From: a virus
Length of the DNA stretch: 33,420 nucleotides
Strand: one strand, 5' to 3'
Virus record (IMG/VR): IMGVR_UViG_3300028859_000042
The notes under the pieces are model-generated. The model saw only the letters and a program-made list of their open reading frames with translations. It ran no database searches and had not been told where the DNA came from. The position numbers were made by a program, and so were the translations under genes. Positions 11,421-29,815 of the stretch are shown here, in pieces (the first letter of the stretch is position 1; each line of letters begins with the position of its first letter).

Positions 11421-12878
11421 TCAACTTAAACATGCACAAATTTGTACAGGAAGTGACGTTTGGATGTTGTTTGATAACATTCCTTGTCCGAACACACTAT
11501 TCTTTATAAATTTAAAGAAATCGTAGTCGCATTTAATTTTAACTGGATTACACAGTTTAAACATATAATTTTTCAGCCATGAAAAATCATTATTTTTGTT
11601 TGATTTTTTAATATGATTAACTGCACCATTTAAATCTGCATTCATTGTTTTATTTATTAGTTTGTCTGTAAACAATCCACGTTTAGAACGAACACCATTT
11701 AGTTCTTTATCTAACGGATTATTAACATCATCACTAACACAAGAACACTTGGAAGTGTAGGCTTCGTTAATTATATCTACTTGAATTCCAACTTCATTAC
11801 TTTTATATTGAATGTAATCCAATAATTTAATGAAAGGAATCTGTATGAAATTTTGTTTTACTTTATTATTTAATTTGCAGTCACCATTATATTTTAAGCT
11901 AGCTAAATTATATGATATGGTTAGGTTTGTTACTGAATTTAATTTCAAGAACTCAACTACCCTTTTACTTACTTTATGAAACTGATCATAAAAATAACGA
12001 TTCCTCTTTTCATAAAGAAATGTCTTATACTTCCTTAATTCTATTCCTCTTTGAGTCCACTTGGAAGCATATTTAATATTATTTTTACTTAAACTATATT
12101 CTATTACTTCGTTAGAAATTGATTCATTTAATTTAGCTATAAAACGATTGAATTTTGAGTTATAAGTCTTAAAGTGATTTCCATCTACAATAATTGATTT
12201 AGATTTTTTATCATCAATAAATATTGCAAGCAAATTATTGACTCCAACATCAATCCCTGCTTCTTTTATGTTCAAATTACTATTTAAAATATCTTCAGTT
12301 AAATAGTTCAAGTGTAAATAAATTTCTTTGTTTGAGTAAACTATTTTAAGGCTTTGAATGTTTTTTGGTAGAAATTCGTGTTTGAAATCAATGTAAAACA
12401 TTTTATTACTTAAGTTAATTCCAATTTTATCTTTTTTCTTGAAGGAAAATGCAATTTGATCAACTAAAATTGAATATTTTGTTACCAAGAATAGCTTTTT
12501 AGCACTGGGTGTATTTGCCTTAACTTTTTGTTTGATTTTAGTGAAAAATGCTTTATAACTTACTTTAACTCTCTTAATCAAATCAGAAATATTATGAATT
12601 TTAAGACATTTAGATAAACGAATCAACTCAATCATTTTATCATAATTTTTATATTTATCTTTAATAAACTTTACTTTGTCTTTTTCCAAACCGCCAGCAG
12701 TTTCAGCAAGAACTGCTCTCATGACTTTATAGTTAGAAAGTAAATTAAAATCTTCTTGGTTTTCCTTCAATATTATAAGGTATAAGTTTTCGAAGTGACG
12801 ATATTTGAAAATATAATCACTCATCATTTTTTTATATTTATCTTCTTTAATGTGTATTATGAAGGTTCTATTATTCAT
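11421..12878 (-). CDS. tnpB: TnpB/Fanzor-like RuvC nuclease (IS605 OrfB family)
   Basis: 485 aa. RuvC-I is GIDVGVNNLLAIF, RuvC-II is EAYTSKCSC and RuvC-III is NADLNGAVNHI, so the D/E/D triad is intact. The usual CxxC...CxxC zinc ribbon between RuvC-II and RuvC-III is degenerate, but there is a C-terminal Cys cluster (CNPVKIKC...ICAC). No TnpA partner is present. Confidence 0.8.
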   Translation of the reverse strand: MNNRTFIIHIKEDKYKKMMSDYIFKYRHFENLYLIILKENQEDFNLLSNYKVMRAVLAETAGGLEKDKVKFIKDKYKNYDKMIELIRLSKCLKIHNISDLIKRVKVSYKAFFTKIKQKVKANTPSAKKLFLVTKYSILVDQIAFSFKKKDKIGINLSNKMFYIDFKHEFLPKNIQSLKIVYSNKEIYLHLNYLTEDILNSNLNIKEAGIDVGVNNLLAIFIDDKKSKSIIVDGNHFKTYNSKFNRFIAKLNESISNEVIEYSLSKNNIKYASKWTQRGIELRKYKTFLYEKRNRYFYDQFHKVSKRVVEFLKLNSVTNLTISYNLASLKYNGDCKLNNKVKQNFIQIPFIKLLDYIQYKSNEVGIQVDIINEAYTSKCSCVSDDVNNPLDKELNGVRSKRGLFTDKLINKTMNADLNGAVNHIKKSNKNNDFSWLKNYMFKLCNPVKIKCDYDFFKFIKNSVFGQGMLSNNIQTSLPVQICACLS

Positions 12879-16681: not shown

Positions 16682-17169
16682 ATAATATATTAAAGCTAAT
16701 AACGATTTCTTTTGAAAAATATTATTATAATAATAGGAATGAATATCTTAAAATAGATTTTATTAAAAATTTTATGTATGATAATTGTGATAATATAAAT
16801 CCTACTGATTTTATTAATAAAAAAATACCAATATATTTCGTTTATGATATAAAAGATAATTTAGAATTAAAAGATATAAATATAAATGAATTTGATACTA
16901 ATGAAATTTATGATAATAAAAAACAAATTTTAGAGTTAGTCGATCAAGATAATGAAATAATTGAATGTATTGATTTTTCATTATTTTCTGATAGAAAATA
17001 TATAATATATTCAAATTTAAATAATAATATAGTATTAAAAAATAAAATATATTCAAATGATTATAAATTATTTTTATTCTATGAGGATCATAACTTTATT
17101 GTAAAATTAATATATTCTCCTAATATTAGAAAATATAAATTACAGCAAATTAAAAAGACGATAAAATGA
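16678..17169 (+). CDS. hypothetical protein
   Basis: 163-aa ORF. Confidence 0.5.
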   Translation: MNNILKLITISFEKYYYNNRNEYLKIDFIKNFMYDNCDNINPTDFINKKIPIYFVYDIKDNLELKDININEFDTNEIYDNKKQILELVDQDNEIIECIDFSLFSDRKYIIYSNLNNNIVLKNKIYSNDYKLFLFYEDHNFIVKLIYSPNIRKYKLQQIKKTIK

Positions 17170-17381
17170 AAATAGGAGATATAGTAATATATATAGGTAA
17201 AGATAATAAATTAATATATTTGAAAGAATATACTATTTATTATATAACTACAACAGGATTTAATTATATATTTTTTATGATTGATGGAATTAATGCTATG
17301 AGCATGTTTCCTATTGAAGATTTTTGTACATTAAAAGAATATAGAAAATTAAAATTAAATAAATTATGCTCAACCAAGTAA
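17166..17381 (+). CDS. family B-like (MKIGDIVIYIGKD...TLKEYRKLKLNKL)
   Basis: 71 aa. Confidence 0.55.
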   Translation: MKIGDIVIYIGKDNKLIYLKEYTIYYITTTGFNYIFFMIDGINAMSMFPIEDFCTLKEYRKLKLNKLCSTK

Positions 17382-17584
17382 AAGGAATTACAGCTAAAAC
17401 AGAATTAGATAAAAAAGCATATGAAAAATATGAAGAGTATATTGATATTCAAGGTTATTACACTCAATATACGTTAGATTTATTCTTAACTCAAAAGAAA
17501 TCTAATAAAATTAAATTATTTTATGAAATAGCTTTAAAACAATTGAGATTAGATAAATTAAATAAATTATGTATACAGAATTAG
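17366..17584 (+). CDS. family D member (...LRLDKLNKLCIQN)
   Basis: 72 aa. First of 4 tandem copies with overlapping junctions aaattATGtatacagaattag. Confidence 0.55.
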   Translation: MLNQVKGITAKTELDKKAYEKYEEYIDIQGYYTQYTLDLFLTQKKSNKIKLFYEIALKQLRLDKLNKLCIQN

Positions 17585-17763
17585 AAAAATTAAACAAGTT
17601 TGCATATGATATGTTTATATACGACATGAAAAATAAATATAGAATAAGCTATTTGACTATTTATGAATTTATTGAAAATAAAGAAATATATCATAATTAT
17701 TATGATAAAGCAAAAAAATTAATAAGAAAAGAAAAACTTAATAAAATATGCACACAAACGTAG
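17569..17763 (+). CDS. family D member (...IRKEKLNKICTQT)
   Basis: 64 aa. Confidence 0.55.
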   Translation: MYTELEKLNKFAYDMFIYDMKNKYRISYLTIYEFIENKEIYHNYYDKAKKLIRKEKLNKICTQT

Positions 17764-17939
17764 ATATGCTAGCATATGAATTATATTGTGAAAGTAGAAA
17801 TCCAAAGGATGAAGGATATTCATGCCTATGTACATTTGATTATTTTATTTATAAAAAAAATGAATATCAATTATATTATGATAAGGTTATCAGAAAAGAA
17901 AAACTTAAAGAATTAAATGAAATATGTACACAGAATTAG
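17748..17939 (+). CDS. family D member (...IRKEKLKELNEICTQN)
   Basis: 63 aa. Confidence 0.55.
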   Translation: MHTNVDMLAYELYCESRNPKDEGYSCLCTFDYFIYKKNEYQLYYDKVIRKEKLKELNEICTQN

Positions 17940-18115
17940 ATAAATTGACATATAAATTATATTCAGAATATATGATGTCTGAAAGATGTATTATTTGGAA
18001 TGATATTGAATATTTTATAAAACGTAAAGATTCATATCATGATTATTTCAATGACGCTATAATTAAATTAAGAAAAGAAAAACTCAATACTATATCAAAA
18101 TATGTGCAAATTTAA
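17924..18115 (+). CDS. family D member (...LRKEKLNTISKYVQI)
   Basis: 63 aa. Confidence 0.55.
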   Translation: MYTELDKLTYKLYSEYMMSERCIIWNDIEYFIKRKDSYHDYFNDAIIKLRKEKLNTISKYVQI

Positions 18116-18663
18116 TATCGGAGATAAAATTGTTTATATTGTATATGAAAATAATTTATCTTTTTATGAGTATCCGTTTGAGTGTTTTAAATATAGTGTT
18201 TTATTGTTAATTATTTAGCATGTGTTACTTGTCAACCATCTCTTTATTAGTTAACTACGTACAACTCTCAATTTTAACTTGGGGATTAATTAAAACATAA
18301 GAAACAACTCCATAGTAGTTGATCAGAACAATCAACCACGTATGCTTTATTTTAGTCTATCCTAATTGATGACCCATACAATCAAATTTTATAACTATAT
18401 AAATAACAAGACATTACTAATATTAAATAGATAAAGCGAATCAACATAAATATATATATTAAGATATCCAAACGGATACTCATATATCTTTTTATGATGA
18501 TTTTTTTAAAAAATATAACACGTATACGATAGTTCAAATTTTAAATAATGGTATTACATTTGGACTAGGAATTAAAGAGATAGGTGGTTATTACTCATCA
18601 AATTATTTCATAACTTTAAAAGAATATAGAAAATTAAAACTTCAAAAATTAGAATTGTTATGA
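18102..18663 (+). pseudogene. family-B gene split by a MITE-like insertion
   Basis: The 5' part MCKFNIGDKIVYIVYENNLSFY runs from 18102 to 18169. The 3' part ...ITLKEYRKLKLQKLELL* runs from 18498 to 18663. Deleting 18170-18497 joins them in frame into a 77-aa family-B protein. Confidence 0.7.
18157..18497. mobile_element. MITE-like non-autonomous element (~316 bp) with TIRs and a 12-13-bp target-site duplication
   Basis: The direct repeat tatctttttatga occurs at 18157-18169 and at 18485-18497. The terminal inverted repeats are tatgagtatccgtttg (left) and caaacggatactcata (right). The interior is GC-richer than its surroundings and has no ORF. Confidence 0.65.
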
Positions 18664-18906
18664 TAACTAATATAAATAAATATGATAAAGTAGTATATAT
18701 TTTGGTCATGATGGTAAAATTAGTCAGTCTAAATTTATCTATGGTAATATTTATACAGTAACAGGCTACTTTCGATCTTATATACCAGAATTGTCTTATA
18801 TAACTACAGATGAAATAGAAAATTTTTATATTTATCTTAATTTTTTTATTACATTAAAAGAATATAGAAAATTAAAACTTCAAAAATTAGAATTATGTTT
18901 AGAGTA
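18660..18906 (+). pseudogene. family-B paralog with a -1 frameshift in a T4 homopolymer (18700-18703)
   Basis: MITNINKYDKVVYI(L) then shifts into GHDGKISQSKFIYGNIYTVTGY...ITLKEYRKLKLQKLELCLE*. Inserting one T restores a full-length family-B ORF. Confidence 0.55.
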
Positions 18907-19104
18907 GGAGAAAAAATAGTTTATATAAAGCAATCATATACTGGACTTAAATTAGCATCAATTCATATTATAAAAGATATTAGATTTGATACTAGTATAT
19001 CATTAGAAGATTCTTATAAAAATTGGTGGTTTTCATCCGAATGTTTTATATCACTATCTGAATATCGAAAACAAAAACTTAATGAATTAAAAAAAATATC
19101 ATAA
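18895..19104 (+). CDS. family B member (MFRVGEKIVYI...SLSEYRKQKLNELKKIS)
   Basis: 69 aa. Confidence 0.6.
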   Translation: MFRVGEKIVYIKQSYTGLKLASIHIIKDIRFDTSISLEDSYKNWWFSSECFISLSEYRKQKLNELKKIS

Positions 19105-19169: not shown

Positions 19170-20231
19170 ATGATAGATAAAAATATTTGTATACCTGGCA
19201 ACATATTTGTTGTAAATAACAAAGTTTCAAAAGTAAATAATCAATATAATGATTATTATAATCAAAAAGACTCATTAGGATTAAATGCTTATATTCATAT
19301 GAAAGATGGAATAGATTATTCTGGTTATAACATGATTGAAATTCCATCAGGTACAAAAATTGAAATAATTAAATTTAAAAATGCAACAGCATTTTTTAAA
19401 ATAATAAGTGAGCCTAATAATATTTATTCTGCATATTGGTCTCCATTTAAAGTTAAAGTTGATAAAATTGAAGGTCAAGAAATTAGTGAACCTGAAGTTA
19501 TACCAACTAGATATAAAATCTTCTATAAAGGAAAAGCTCACAAGCCAAAATATTTCAATGATCTTGGTAAAGTTAAAGCATCATTACTTATTACAATTGG
19601 ATATTATGAAAATCAATATGAAATGTTCCAAAAATATATTGATCGTAATCCAGAATTAGAAGACTCACAAATTCCAGAATGGTGTCAATCTGCGAATGAA
19701 ACATTTGATAGAGATGATTGTAAATATCTTGAAATTATGTCATACGTTAATGGTGATAACAAACATCCTATCAAATTTGATTTTGATATGCTTAAATATT
19801 ATGATGATTCAATGAGATTGATTAATGTCACTGCTCAGTTTGGCAACGCAGCAAGAGAAGTATTCAAAAATGTAATGAATACAAAAGAATATTCTTATAT
19901 GTTAGTTTATTATCCTTATGAATATCGTAATCCTAATAATTTTGATGTAAGTTATGGCTATAAAAGTAGTAATTTTGATTTTAGTGAATTGAAAGAAGAT
20001 CAAAGAATTAAAGACATTTTAAAAGAATCTGGGATCAAAGGAACAAAAAAATCTACCAAATTTGGTAAAACTGCAATAGCTTTTAAAACTCTTGATGATC
20101 TTAAACAAGTTATGTTAAGGCTAGAACCAAAAGAATATTTTATTCTTGATTGTGACGGTGATCAATTAATTGAAAAAAATACAAGATTTATTAAATTAAT
20201 TATGCTTCAAGAAGAAAATTTTGATGAATAA
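19170..20231 (+). CDS. hypothetical protein
   Basis: 353-aa ORF with no recognised domain. The short ORFs inside it on both strands are spurious. Confidence 0.6.
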   Translation: MIDKNICIPGNIFVVNNKVSKVNNQYNDYYNQKDSLGLNAYIHMKDGIDYSGYNMIEIPSGTKIEIIKFKNATAFFKIISEPNNIYSAYWSPFKVKVDKIEGQEISEPEVIPTRYKIFYKGKAHKPKYFNDLGKVKASLLITIGYYENQYEMFQKYIDRNPELEDSQIPEWCQSANETFDRDDCKYLEIMSYVNGDNKHPIKFDFDMLKYYDDSMRLINVTAQFGNAAREVFKNVMNTKEYSYMLVYYPYEYRNPNNFDVSYGYKSSNFDFSELKEDQRIKDILKESGIKGTKKSTKFGKTAIAFKTLDDLKQVMLRLEPKEYFILDCDGDQLIEKNTRFIKLIMLQEENFDE

Positions 20232-20234
20232 TAT

Positions 20235-20537
20235 ATGAAAATAGGAGATAAAATATTTTGCTTAGATTATCAAATATATTCGGATTATAATGACGATATT
20301 AAATATAAAGGAGGATTATTAAAAAAAAATACAGAATATACAATCTATGGTATTTTTTTAGAATTTAGTGATTATTCTGAAAAATGGGTAGCAGAAACTC
20401 CTAAGATAGATGATAATAATTGTCAAATATATTTTGAATTAATTGAACTTGATGAGTTGATGTTTAATAAATGTAGATTTTTAACTAATAATGAATATAG
20501 AAAACTTAAGTTGCAGAAAATATATGAAAGTAGGTGA
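20235..20537 (+). CDS. family B member (MKIGDKIFCLD...NNEYRKLKLQKIYESR)
   Basis: 100 aa. Confidence 0.55.
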   Translation: MKIGDKIFCLDYQIYSDYNDDIKYKGGLLKKNTEYTIYGIFLEFSDYSEKWVAETPKIDDNNCQIYFELIELDELMFNKCRFLTNNEYRKLKLQKIYESR

Positions 20538-20757
20538 TAAAGTAATTTTTCATAGTAATCATTATTATAGAGATTTAATAGAAGGTTACACATATACAAT
20601 ATCTGAAATTAATAGAATAGATGATGCTTATATTGAAATACCTAACGAAGATTATATTATAGTATTATTAGAAAATACTTACGTTTTTTTATCAGATTTT
20701 ATAACTATAAAAGAATATCGAAAACTTAAATTGAAAGAAATAGATGAAAGTAGGTGA
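20491..20757 (+). CDS. family B member (YMKVGDKVIFHS...TIKEYRKLKLKEIDESR)
   Basis: 88 aa by the ORF track. The likely start is the internal Met just before KVGDKV. Confidence 0.55.
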   Translation: MNIENLSCRKYMKVGDKVIFHSNHYYRDLIEGYTYTISEINRIDDAYIEIPNEDYIIVLLENTYVFLSDFITIKEYRKLKLKEIDESR

Positions 20758-20947
20758 TAAAGTTGTATGTATTGATAATTATAATTATACATATAAAATT
20801 TCATTAGATAAAATTTTAACAATAAAATTCAATAATAATTCTTATATGAAATTTGATGAAATCGATTATAGATATTCAAGTAATAGATTTATAACTATAA
20901 AAGAATATAGAAAACGTAAATTAAAAAAATTAAAAAACTTATACTAA
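20744..20947 (+). CDS. family B member (MKVGDKVVCIDN...TIKEYRKRKLKKLKNLY)
   Basis: 67 aa. Confidence 0.6.
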   Translation: MKVGDKVVCIDNYNYTYKISLDKILTIKFNNNSYMKFDEIDYRYSSNRFITIKEYRKRKLKKLKNLY

Positions 20948-23112: not shown

Positions 23113-23183
23113 GCTCATTTAGTCCAGTGATAGGGCGGTAGCCTCTAAAACTACCTACATCGGTTTGAATCCGATAGTGAGCA
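23113..23183 (+). tRNA. tRNA with anticodon CUA (UAG-decoding suppressor-type tRNA)
   Basis: The cloverleaf folds by hand. The 7-bp acceptor stem is gctcatt/agtgagc with one G-U. The D stem is gtcc/gggc and the T stem atcgg/ccgat. The T loop is tttgaat. The anticodon stem is gtagc/(a)ctac around the 7-nt loop cuCUAaa, with U33 and A37 present. The discriminator is A and no CCA is encoded. A19 in the D loop together with U56 in the T loop is a covariant replacement of the G19-C56 tertiary pair. The anticodon lies at 23145-23147. Confidence 0.65.
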
Positions 23184-27234: not shown

Positions 27235-27446
27235 GAGATAGAGTAGTTTGCATTGATAATTCTTATTTATATGATATAAATCTATTACAATTAAATAATA
27301 TTTATATAATTGAAGATATTTTTAGTTATGATACAGAAAATAATTATATTGGTATGATATTAGAAAAATATAATTTTGAATTTAATTCTAATAGATTTAT
27401 ATCATTAAAAGAATATAGAAAACAAAAAATATTAAAATTATGTTAA
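27222..27446 (+). CDS. family B member (MFKIRDRVVCIDN...)
   Basis: 74 aa. Confidence 0.6.
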   Translation: MFKIRDRVVCIDNSYLYDINLLQLNNIYIIEDIFSYDTENNYIGMILEKYNFEFNSNRFISLKEYRKQKILKLC

Positions 27447-28266: not shown

Positions 28267-28479
28267 AATAAACTTTTTTAAAATATTATACTATTAAATA
28301 TAATTAAACAAATAGTTCTTTGATGTCATGATAAAATGGTTGTTAGTTAAAAACTTAACTAACGTAAAATCATAAAAGTAATAAGTTTGATTAAAAATCA
28401 AACTGAAACTTTTAATCGTTATACATATCAATAATATTGATTACAGTAAACATAGAACGATTAATACACTTTTAAATAC

Positions 28480-28665
28480 ATCTTAACAACGGACTATAAT
28501 AAGTCTTAAAAATGGTTGTTCGTTATGTAGTTTAAATAATTAAAAGCGACTACGATTTCTTTAAATTATTAAAGAATAGTGTGTTCGGATAAAGAATTTC
28601 ATCAAACGAAATTCAAACGTCACAGCAAGTACAAATTTGTATAAGTTTAAGTTGACGGTATACCT
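28480..28665 (+). pseudogene. decayed TnpB remnant retaining the element's 3' end (putative orphan omegaRNA scaffold)
   Basis: 28548-28660 matches the reverse complement of 11420-11540 (the last ~113 nt of tnpB plus 3 nt) at about 86% identity (16 mismatches, my manual count), ending exactly at gttgacgg. Further upstream similarity to tnpB is patchy, for example aaaatggttgttcgtt against aaatggtgttcgtt, and there is a ~140-nt internal deletion. No ORF survives. Confidence 0.6.
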
Positions 28666-28765
28666 ATTAATATATCAACCATGTGGATTAATCATGATAT
28701 GAAAGTTATCATAAAAAAAGATTTAGTTGGAAGTAAATTAAGAAAAAGAAAATTATTAAAAATAA

Positions 28766-28990: not shown

Positions 28991-29534
28991 ATTCGGAGTA
29001 ATATTAGCAAGAGTTCAGCCAGTACATAATGGTCATATGGCATTAATTAAAAAGGCATATGATGAAAATGAAAATGTAGTATTTTTAGTTGGAAGTGCGG
29101 ATAAAGTTGACTCAAGAAATCCAATTCCAGTTAGCATTAGAATTGAAATGCTAAAAGATGCATTAAAAGAAGCTAAGTTGATTGATAAATGTTTAATAAT
29201 ACCATTAGATGATTTAACTTCAGAAAGTGATAATTCTATTGAATGGGGTTTTTATCTTTATACTAAAATAGTAGATCAAATTAAAGATAGTTGTTTCACT
29301 ATGTATTATTCAGATGGATTTGAAATCATCACTAAATGGTTTCCAGGATTTATGTTCAAAAATAATGTATCTCTGGTGCTATTAGCAAGAGGAACTGTTG
29401 AAGATGGTGTATCTGCTACCGAAGTTAGAAAAGCTATACTGAGCAATTCTCCTGAGCTAAAAAACATGGTTCCAAAATCAGTCTATAATAACAGAAATAC
29501 GATTAAATCATTTATTGAATTAAATAAAGAATGA
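28983..29534 (+). CDS. nicotinamide/nicotinate mononucleotide adenylyltransferase (NadM-type NMNAT)
   Basis: 183 aa. ARVQPVHNGH is the (H/T)xGH motif and SATEVRK is the SxTxxR motif. The sequence is collinear with archaeal NadM (GRFQPFHKGHLEVIKK...; ...[23 protein letters not shown] against SATEVRKAILSNSPELKNMVPKSV). Confidence 0.8.
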   Translation: MNKFGVILARVQPVHNGHMALIKKAYDENENVVFLVGSADKVDSRNPIPVSIRIEMLKDALKEAKLIDKCLIIPLDDLTSESDNSIEWGFYLYTKIVDQIKDSCFTMYYSDGFEIITKWFPGFMFKNNVSLVLLARGTVEDGVSATEVRKAILSNSPELKNMVPKSVYNNRNTIKSFIELNKE

Positions 29535-29815
29535 AAAATATTTATATAACAAAAGATGAACTTGATAATTTCACAGAAGAACAATTAAATAGATTAGTAT
29601 TTGTTTTTTATGATGGGCAAGGAGACACTAGCGTTATGATATGGAAAGATTTTATTGAATTATCAAAAGAATGGGAGAAAGAACTTGGAATTGGATTTCC
29701 AAAAAATTCAGATAAATTTGATTTTTTATATAAAGATAGTGAACTAAATGGTAATATAAGTGAATTTCTATATTTTGATTTTAATAATGAATACAAAAGA
29801 ATTTATTTTAAATAA
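29531..29815 (+). CDS. hypothetical protein
   Basis: 94-aa ORF between the NMNAT and the RNA ligase. Confidence 0.45.
   Translation: MKNIYITKDELDNFTEEQLNRLVFVFYDGQGDTSVMIWKDFIELSKEWEKELGIGFPKNSDKFDFLYKDSELNGNISEFLYFDFNNEYKRIYFK

Follow-up and report, generated by a model that had tools for sequence, protein, structure and literature searches.

The window analysed here, a stretch of 33,420 nucleotides from an IMG/VR virus record, contains a small gene that is split in two by a segment without open reading frames (ORFs), and the segment is flanked by a direct repeat. Is this segment a mobile element, did it arrive recently, and which enzyme could have moved it? A reading of the letters alone (hereafter the sequence-only reading) had proposed a recent, non-autonomous DNA transposon with terminal inverted repeats (TIRs) and a target-site duplication (TSD) splitting the gene, and this proposal is upheld by the TIRs, the empty sites and the other copies described below. 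The segment at 18165-18484 is very probably a MITE inserted in a phage gene; it codes for nothing, derives from or imitates an insertion sequence (IS) of the IS1595 family, and was presumably moved in trans by an IS1595-type transposase.

Anatomy of the insert and of the gene it interrupts

The direct repeat TATCTTTTTATGA is present at 18157-18169 and again at 18485-18497, just as had been reported from the sequence alone, where it was taken for a TSD of 12-13 bp next to an insert of 316 bp. Both lengths had to be revised. In all the other contexts in which the element occurs, identity begins at 18165 and ends at 18484, and the mobile unit is therefore 320 bp long and starts with TATGAG. Its TSD is 8 bp (TATCTTTT; Table 1). 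The apparent 13-bp repeat exceeds the TSD by 5 bp because the target itself continues with TATGA, which are also the first bases of the element; this extra TATGA is a chance match. What stands of the earlier description is that the insert lacks ORFs, that it is slightly richer in GC than its surroundings (0.26 in the interior, as in the whole unit, versus 0.20 in the flanks), and that it is bounded by inverted repeats, whose core is TATGAGTATCCGTTTG.

A perfect 16-nt inverted repeat within 600 bp was found in 23% of Markov-1 random windows, so that in DNA of 21% GC such a repeat is weak evidence on its own. An inverted repeat of at least 12 nt that is bracketed by an 8-bp direct repeat is far rarer, at about 0.01 per random window. 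The decisive evidence for transposition is comparative, and consists of empty sites and other copies of the element.

Table 1. Features of the inserted element, its targets and the neighbouring small genes, in window coordinates
Feature	Position	Strand	Remarks
Left TSD copy TATCTTTT	18157..18164	.	Present once in the empty alleles L122 and L126, which are shorter by exactly 328 bp
320-bp MITE, non-autonomous, IS1595 family	18165..18484	+	No ORF longer than 26 aa; 100% identical copies elsewhere
Left TIR	18165..18190	+	16 nt perfect (18165-18180), 26 nt at 85%; first 19 nt shared without mismatch with the 1010-bp IS at its left end
Right TIR	18459..18484	-	16 nt perfect (18469-18484, exact reverse complement of the left core); 85-87% identity over the last 39-41 nt with the corresponding end of the 1010-bp IS
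Right TSD copy TATCTTTT	18485..18492	.	Placed by comparison with the empty alleles
5' fragment of the 77-aa mini-gene, codons 1-21	18102..18164	+	Intact gene at L122 3179-3412
3' fragment of the mini-gene	18485..18663	+	Without an in-frame start of its own; TGA stop at 18661-18663
Next paralog, 81 aa when intact	18660..18907	+	Start codon and preceding stop codon (interrupted gene) overlap as ATGA; frame shifted here
MITE target AAATATTT, empty in the window	29536..29543	.	Occupied in L132; codons 2-5 of the gene at 29531-29815

The interrupted gene belongs to tandem arrays of paralogs of 60-90 aa with overlapping stop and start codons, which occupy 17166-19104 and 20491-20947 and share a conserved C-terminal (F)ITLKEYRKLKL motif. 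A distant member is found in an IMG/VR contig (L001), and no domain was found for this mini-gene family in Pfam. In the filled state the frame of the truncated mini-gene runs on into the element as far as a stop at 18218; the product has 38 aa, of which 21 are native and 17 come from the duplication and the element. Deletion of 328 bp in silico yields a 77-aa ORF that is 96% identical to the product of the intact gene in L122, and the gene is intact in L126 as well, in agreement with the expectation of the sequence-only reading that removal of the insert restores the frame. The reconstructed protein aligns end to end with the window paralogs, including the KVGDKVVYI-like motif at the N-terminus and FITLKEYRKLKL at the C-terminus. 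The 320-bp insertion inactivates the 77-aa mini-gene, and it also disrupts the overlapping stop/start that links this gene to the next paralog.

That next paralog is itself frameshifted by an extra TT at 18700-18701, within a T-run, in the window and in contigs L125, L118 and L216, and is intact, without the TT, in L124, L120 and L122. Since L124 carries the MITE and lacks the extra TT, the frameshift arose after the insertion. One may speculate that it fits the decay of redundant array members. A search with the anchor protein encoded downstream (19170-20231) recovered a single distant relative, again in L001, which was uninformative on the empty site.

Filled alleles, empty alleles and further copies

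Alleles were compared in contigs that encode exactly the proteins neighbouring the insertion. The site is filled in L124, L125 and L216, which come from both ENA and JGI assemblies and are 99.8-100% identical to the window across both junctions. It is empty, with the 77-aa gene intact, in L122 (together with 12 similar places) and in L126, and the empty allele seems to be the commoner one among the contigs read. The insertion is polymorphic, and it is recent, as the sequence-only reading had supposed. That reading had also inferred a cut-and-paste element that leaves by precise excision, which the empty alleles do not bear out: they carry linked single-nucleotide differences close by (18142 T>G, 18514 T>G, 18565 and 18567), and therefore resemble a sister haplotype into which the element had never inserted.

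Further copies, which the sequence-only reading had named along with the empty site as the things to look for, were found on other contigs. Copies that are 100% identical and have exactly the same ends occur in L217/L118, L124, L125, L216 and, inverted, L127, and partial copies in L123, L132 and L138. L132 derives from a 95%-identical strain, and its MITE lies at the ortholog of window position 29536. In L138 and in L217/L118 the MITE is placed after the stop codon of a 423-aa GIY-YIG-like ORF. This 423-aa protein (L118/L217, 634-1905), whose stop codon the MITE abuts, has a weak GIY-YIG N-terminus resembling SegE and group I intron endonucleases, followed by about 9 repeats of about 32 aa, and is a member of a large family found on large phage-like contigs.

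The inverted copy in L127 adjoins a RibD_C-like gene. Its right flank is the N-terminus of a RibD_C-type reductase, 81% (amino acids) and 83% (nucleotides) identical to genes in bacterial neighbourhoods of 35-37% GC, and because this flank is closest to bacterial loci, an identical MITE may also reside in a bacterium. The other flank consists of 78 nt of AT-rich DNA joined to phage sequence at window position 18139, which is not an element boundary; no convincing alignment of these 78 nt to the bacterial loci L218-L220 was found. This arrangement (flanks at 370-447 and 768-905 of L127, a short contig) is either a chimera or a real rearrangement. In L217 the right flank is that of the window site and the left flank that of another site, which is most simply explained by an assembly that crossed between copies. 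Both L217 and L127 are probably chimeric, so that the number of distinct sites, at least 3 besides the one in the window, is approximate. An invertible DNA switch was considered and rejected, since the inverted copy in L127 has different flanks and thus does not represent an inversion in situ.

No second copy was found by sensitive BLASTN of the insert inside the 33-kb window, nor did BLASTN of the region and the insert give any match among 50,697 phage records. An exact scan of IMG/VR with a 14-mer of the TIR returned more than 116 single chance matches, none with extended similarity, and an interior 24-mer of the element had no match there, so that the phage is absent from IMG/VR as searched.

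The TIR family, its autonomous partner and the probable phage host

By scanning a metagenome collection for the terminus we found a family of elements that carry TATGAGTATCCGYTTGnrTACCTAA at both ends. Its MITEs measure 250, 265, 284, 307 and 366 bp and its ISs 1008-1015 bp, and one element of 725 bp falls between them. A second MITE resides in the same phage, some 8 kb upstream of the first window position (L213, 1847-2289): it is 443 bp long, has perfect 16-nt TIRs and the TSD AAAAATTT, and differs in its interior from the 320-bp MITE; contig L214 begins just after it. Perfect 8-bp TSDs were found at eight sites (the window site, L135/L157, L134, L136, L148, L158, L193 and L213). All the duplicated 8-mers have A or T at at least 7 of 8 positions, even in genomes of 34-40% GC, which suggests that the family prefers AT-rich targets, of which a phage of 21% GC offers many. 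About half of the full-length IS copies lie in contigs without matching flank 8-mers. These mismatched 8-mers recur as the opposite flank in other contigs, so that the assemblies appear to cross between repeat copies; we therefore attribute the unmatched flanks to chimeric assembly, real recombination between copies being the alternative.

The autonomous partner is an IS of 1010 bp with the same termini and 8-bp TSDs (in L133, L135, L157 and L193), which encodes a transposase of 307 aa (3580-4503 on L133). A DDE transposase sharing the TIRs of the insert, which the sequence-only reading had thought worth searching for, thus exists. The protein matches the NCBIfam model for IS1595-family transposases (NF033547) with E = 4e-62 and 210 bits, against a cutoff of 75, and the Pfam domain DDE_Tnp_IS1595 (PF12762) with E = 2.4e-23. 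An N-terminal zinc ribbon is found in all IS1595 groups except IS1016; here the corresponding domain, Zn_ribbon_IS1595 (PF12760), scores 17.5 bits, under its cutoff of 25.4, with a CxxC-x16-CxxC motif visible, and PF12760 is precomputed for many close relatives. In total the transposase has 4700 relatives at E <= 1e-40, some of them named IS1595 family transposase by their sources. The element ends (TATGAGTATC...) presumably fit the consensus of the ISSod11 group.

The likeness between the MITE and the IS is confined to the termini (Table 1), of which the outermost 16-19 nt agree at both ends. Their interiors are unrelated, so that there is no sign of descent by internal deletion, and the interior is not conserved among members of the TIR family. 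The 320-bp element is thus small and non-coding, has TIRs and a TSD confirmed by an empty site, occurs at several loci, and shares its termini with an autonomous element, as is typical of a MITE.

Several lines of evidence place the window in a large phage. The window and its flanks encode T4-type genes (Pfam Phage_30_3 and T4_Y16D, two RNA ligases and a Seg-like GIY-YIG protein), the RNA ligases match phages best, including a metagenomic phage of 735 kb, and the longest contigs bearing window genes are of the 0.2-1 Mb class; on these grounds we assign the window to a large T4-like phage.

The window holds further features of its own. An 817-aa protein (2518-4971, +) combines Major Vault Protein shoulder, Vault_3 and Band_7/SPFH domains; it is unusual in a phage and is conserved in other contigs of the same phage. 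A perfect palindromic hairpin with a stem of about 22 nt (5315-5358) lies between convergent genes at 5303 and 5393 and is conserved in L142, and a 17-nt perfect inverted repeat, with arms about 100 nt apart, is present at 27271-27405. A tRNA at 23113-23183 (+) has the anticodon CUA, of the amber-suppressor type, and is labelled tRNA-Pyl by ARAGORN; TAG ends 19 of the 82 ATG-started ORFs of at least 60 aa, so that no global TAG recoding is apparent in the window. The 500 bp at 28267-28765 contain no ORF of at least 60 aa, and L217 ends at about 28377 and L210 starts at about 28306, which suggests a repeat or a strain-variable segment, in which only a 17-nt direct repeat was seen. A 485-aa TnpB (OrfB_IS605 and Cas12f1-like TNB domains; 11421-12878, -), also present in L216, represents a separate class of mobile element.

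The 1010-bp IS is multicopy in Bacteroidota contigs, and is found in Bacteroidales, Paludibacter and other Bacteroidota metagenome-assembled genomes, where its neighbours include Bacteroidota-type genes such as Por_Secre_tail and BACON. A contig with an IS end (L147) and a phage contig (L121) come from the same JGI sample series (Ga0302186). These results suggest that the host of the phage is a member of the Bacteroidota. Among phages, the transposase group gave only 2 weak matches in the 50,697 phage records; none was found by searching IMG/VR, and no transposase was found within the window. The related viral contig L142 (IMG/VR L221, 22.7% GC), which has a paralog family and the conserved hairpin in common with the phage, enters the autonomous IS at its left end and breaks off after 126 nt, and judging from this short stretch the phage lineage may carry the IS itself. 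The view of the sequence-only reading that the element is active in this genome is thus supported only in part: the transposase was located in Bacteroidota contigs, with only those 126 nt of the IS on the viral side.

Alternative explanations, known elements and significance

An ORF-less, slightly GC-richer insert of about 320 nt within a phage gene could also be a self-splicing intron, of group I or similar, which would be removed from the RNA and leave the gene working; T4-like phages do carry group I introns, and the whole insert folds better than its shuffles (z = -4.1 and -5.3). The fold signal is accounted for by the pairing of the TIRs, as the interior alone gives z = -0.3 and -1.8, and no Rfam match was obtained even at E up to 10, either in the whole window or in a permissive scan of 18000-18700. 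Introns make no target duplication, whereas an 8-bp one is present here. The identical element is also found in unrelated contexts, after a stop codon and inverted, and its termini equal those of a transposase-encoding IS, which together make an intron extremely improbable. We give equally little credit to a non-autonomous element of the IS200/IS605 type (PATE), moved by TnpB-linked machinery and perhaps carrying an omega-RNA-like cargo. A TnpB is indeed encoded 5 kb away, and the composition of the insert interior is strand-asymmetric. However, IS200/IS605 elements have subterminal hairpins, lack TIRs and make no TSD, and the insert has perfect TIRs, an 8-bp TSD and the termini of an IS1595-family IS. 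Neither similarity between the insert and the sequences flanking the TnpB gene nor an end sequence common to the two elements was found; they belong to distinct classes, as the sequence-only reading had already concluded.

Could the arrangement be the product of a local rearrangement or duplication, or of faulty assembly, rather than of transposition? The element is present in a single copy inside the 33-kb window, and the short-read contigs around it are demonstrably chimeric in places (L217, L127). Nevertheless, independent JGI and ENA assemblies span both junctions (L216, L124, L125), identical copies exist at other loci, the termini and the 8-bp TSD recur throughout a large family, and the element and 8 bp are precisely what the empty allele lacks, so that we consider this very unlikely. 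Somewhat less remote, yet still improbable, is a co-opted MITE, kept because a small RNA, promoter or terminator in its interior regulates the mini-gene array; the sequence-only reading had similarly imagined a small-RNA or regulatory cargo. In favour of such a role, all copies are 100% identical, and the insertion, which recurs in several samples, lies within an array whose genes are translationally coupled. The identity of the copies is explained by recency. Inside the element we found neither a sigma-70-like promoter nor an intrinsic terminator nor an Rfam match; the interior, which folds no better than shuffled sequence, is unconserved in the family, and the empty allele seems to be commoner. 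The proposed cargo is thus unsupported.

We therefore retain the IS1595-type MITE as the explanation of the insert. In the proposed scheme the MITE would have inserted at TATCTTTT, between codons 21 and 23 of the 77-aa gene, duplicating 8 bp. As it has no transposase, it must be mobilised in trans, and the enzyme that its termini point to is the 307-aa transposase of the 1010-bp IS, with its putative zinc ribbon and its DDE domain. IS copies of the host chromosome, or of the phage, could supply this transposase during infection, and transposition would most likely take place inside an infected Bacteroidota cell, with AT-rich 8-mers as targets. The comparisons show the anatomy of the element, its 8-bp TSD, the polymorphism of the insertion, several insertion sites, and the identity and family of the partner enzyme; the particular transposase copy involved, the place of the reaction and its chemistry (cut-and-paste or copy-based) are inferred.

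How does this element compare with others? The MPME1 and MPME2 elements of mycobacteriophages, reportedly described by Sampson and colleagues in 2009, are ultra-small mobile elements of about 440 bp; they resemble the window element in their small size, in their short inverted repeats and in being polymorphic between related phages. Unlike it, they have a small ORF and a different footprint at the insertion site, and they are not known to have IS1595-type termini or an 8-bp TSD.

[quoted passage not shown] The window element has the termini and the TSD length of this partner; unlike an IS of the family, it has no ORF, and its interior is unrelated to that of the IS. [quoted passage not shown] In contrast to both, the present case concerns a bacteriophage with T4-type genes and a bacterial IS as the partner.

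The closest precedent is the survey of Nadal-Molero et al. (NAR 2024, PMC11602168), who described viral MITEs common to prokaryotic hosts, with Bacteroidota phages among their examples, and found MITEs in only 0.01% of the viral sequences surveyed. As in those cases, a MITE in a phage has cellular counterparts that suggest a link to a host. What sets the present case apart is evidence at the level of populations: the site exists with and without the insert, the insertion lies inside a gene and inactivates it, the large T4-like phage harbours two MITE subfamilies, and the autonomous partner has been identified. The 320-bp MITE is thus an ordinary kind of element in an uncommon place, phage-host MITEs being already described and rare, and it reveals no new mechanism.

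Transposable elements are scarce in the genomes of virulent phages, and this locus offers a clean case at the population level, in which both allelic states are seen, a gene is inactivated, and a single large phage, so far uncultivated, carries at least two MITE subfamilies. Because the termini are common to a multicopy Bacteroidota IS that is present in a sample along with the phage, they provide a testable host prediction for a phage without a cultured relative. Repeats of this kind also break and scramble the metagenome assemblies of large phages. A wider picture can be drawn, to which we assign a rather low probability: the T4-like jumbo phage, a lytic one, would be an active arena and a vehicle for the IS1595-family system, with the MITE residing in a bacterial chromosome as well (the RibD_C-like flank in L127) and the phage lineage carrying the IS (L142/L221). 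If this were true, the phage would shuttle ISs and MITEs between Bacteroidota hosts, and MITE copies would rearrange the tandem mini-gene arrays.
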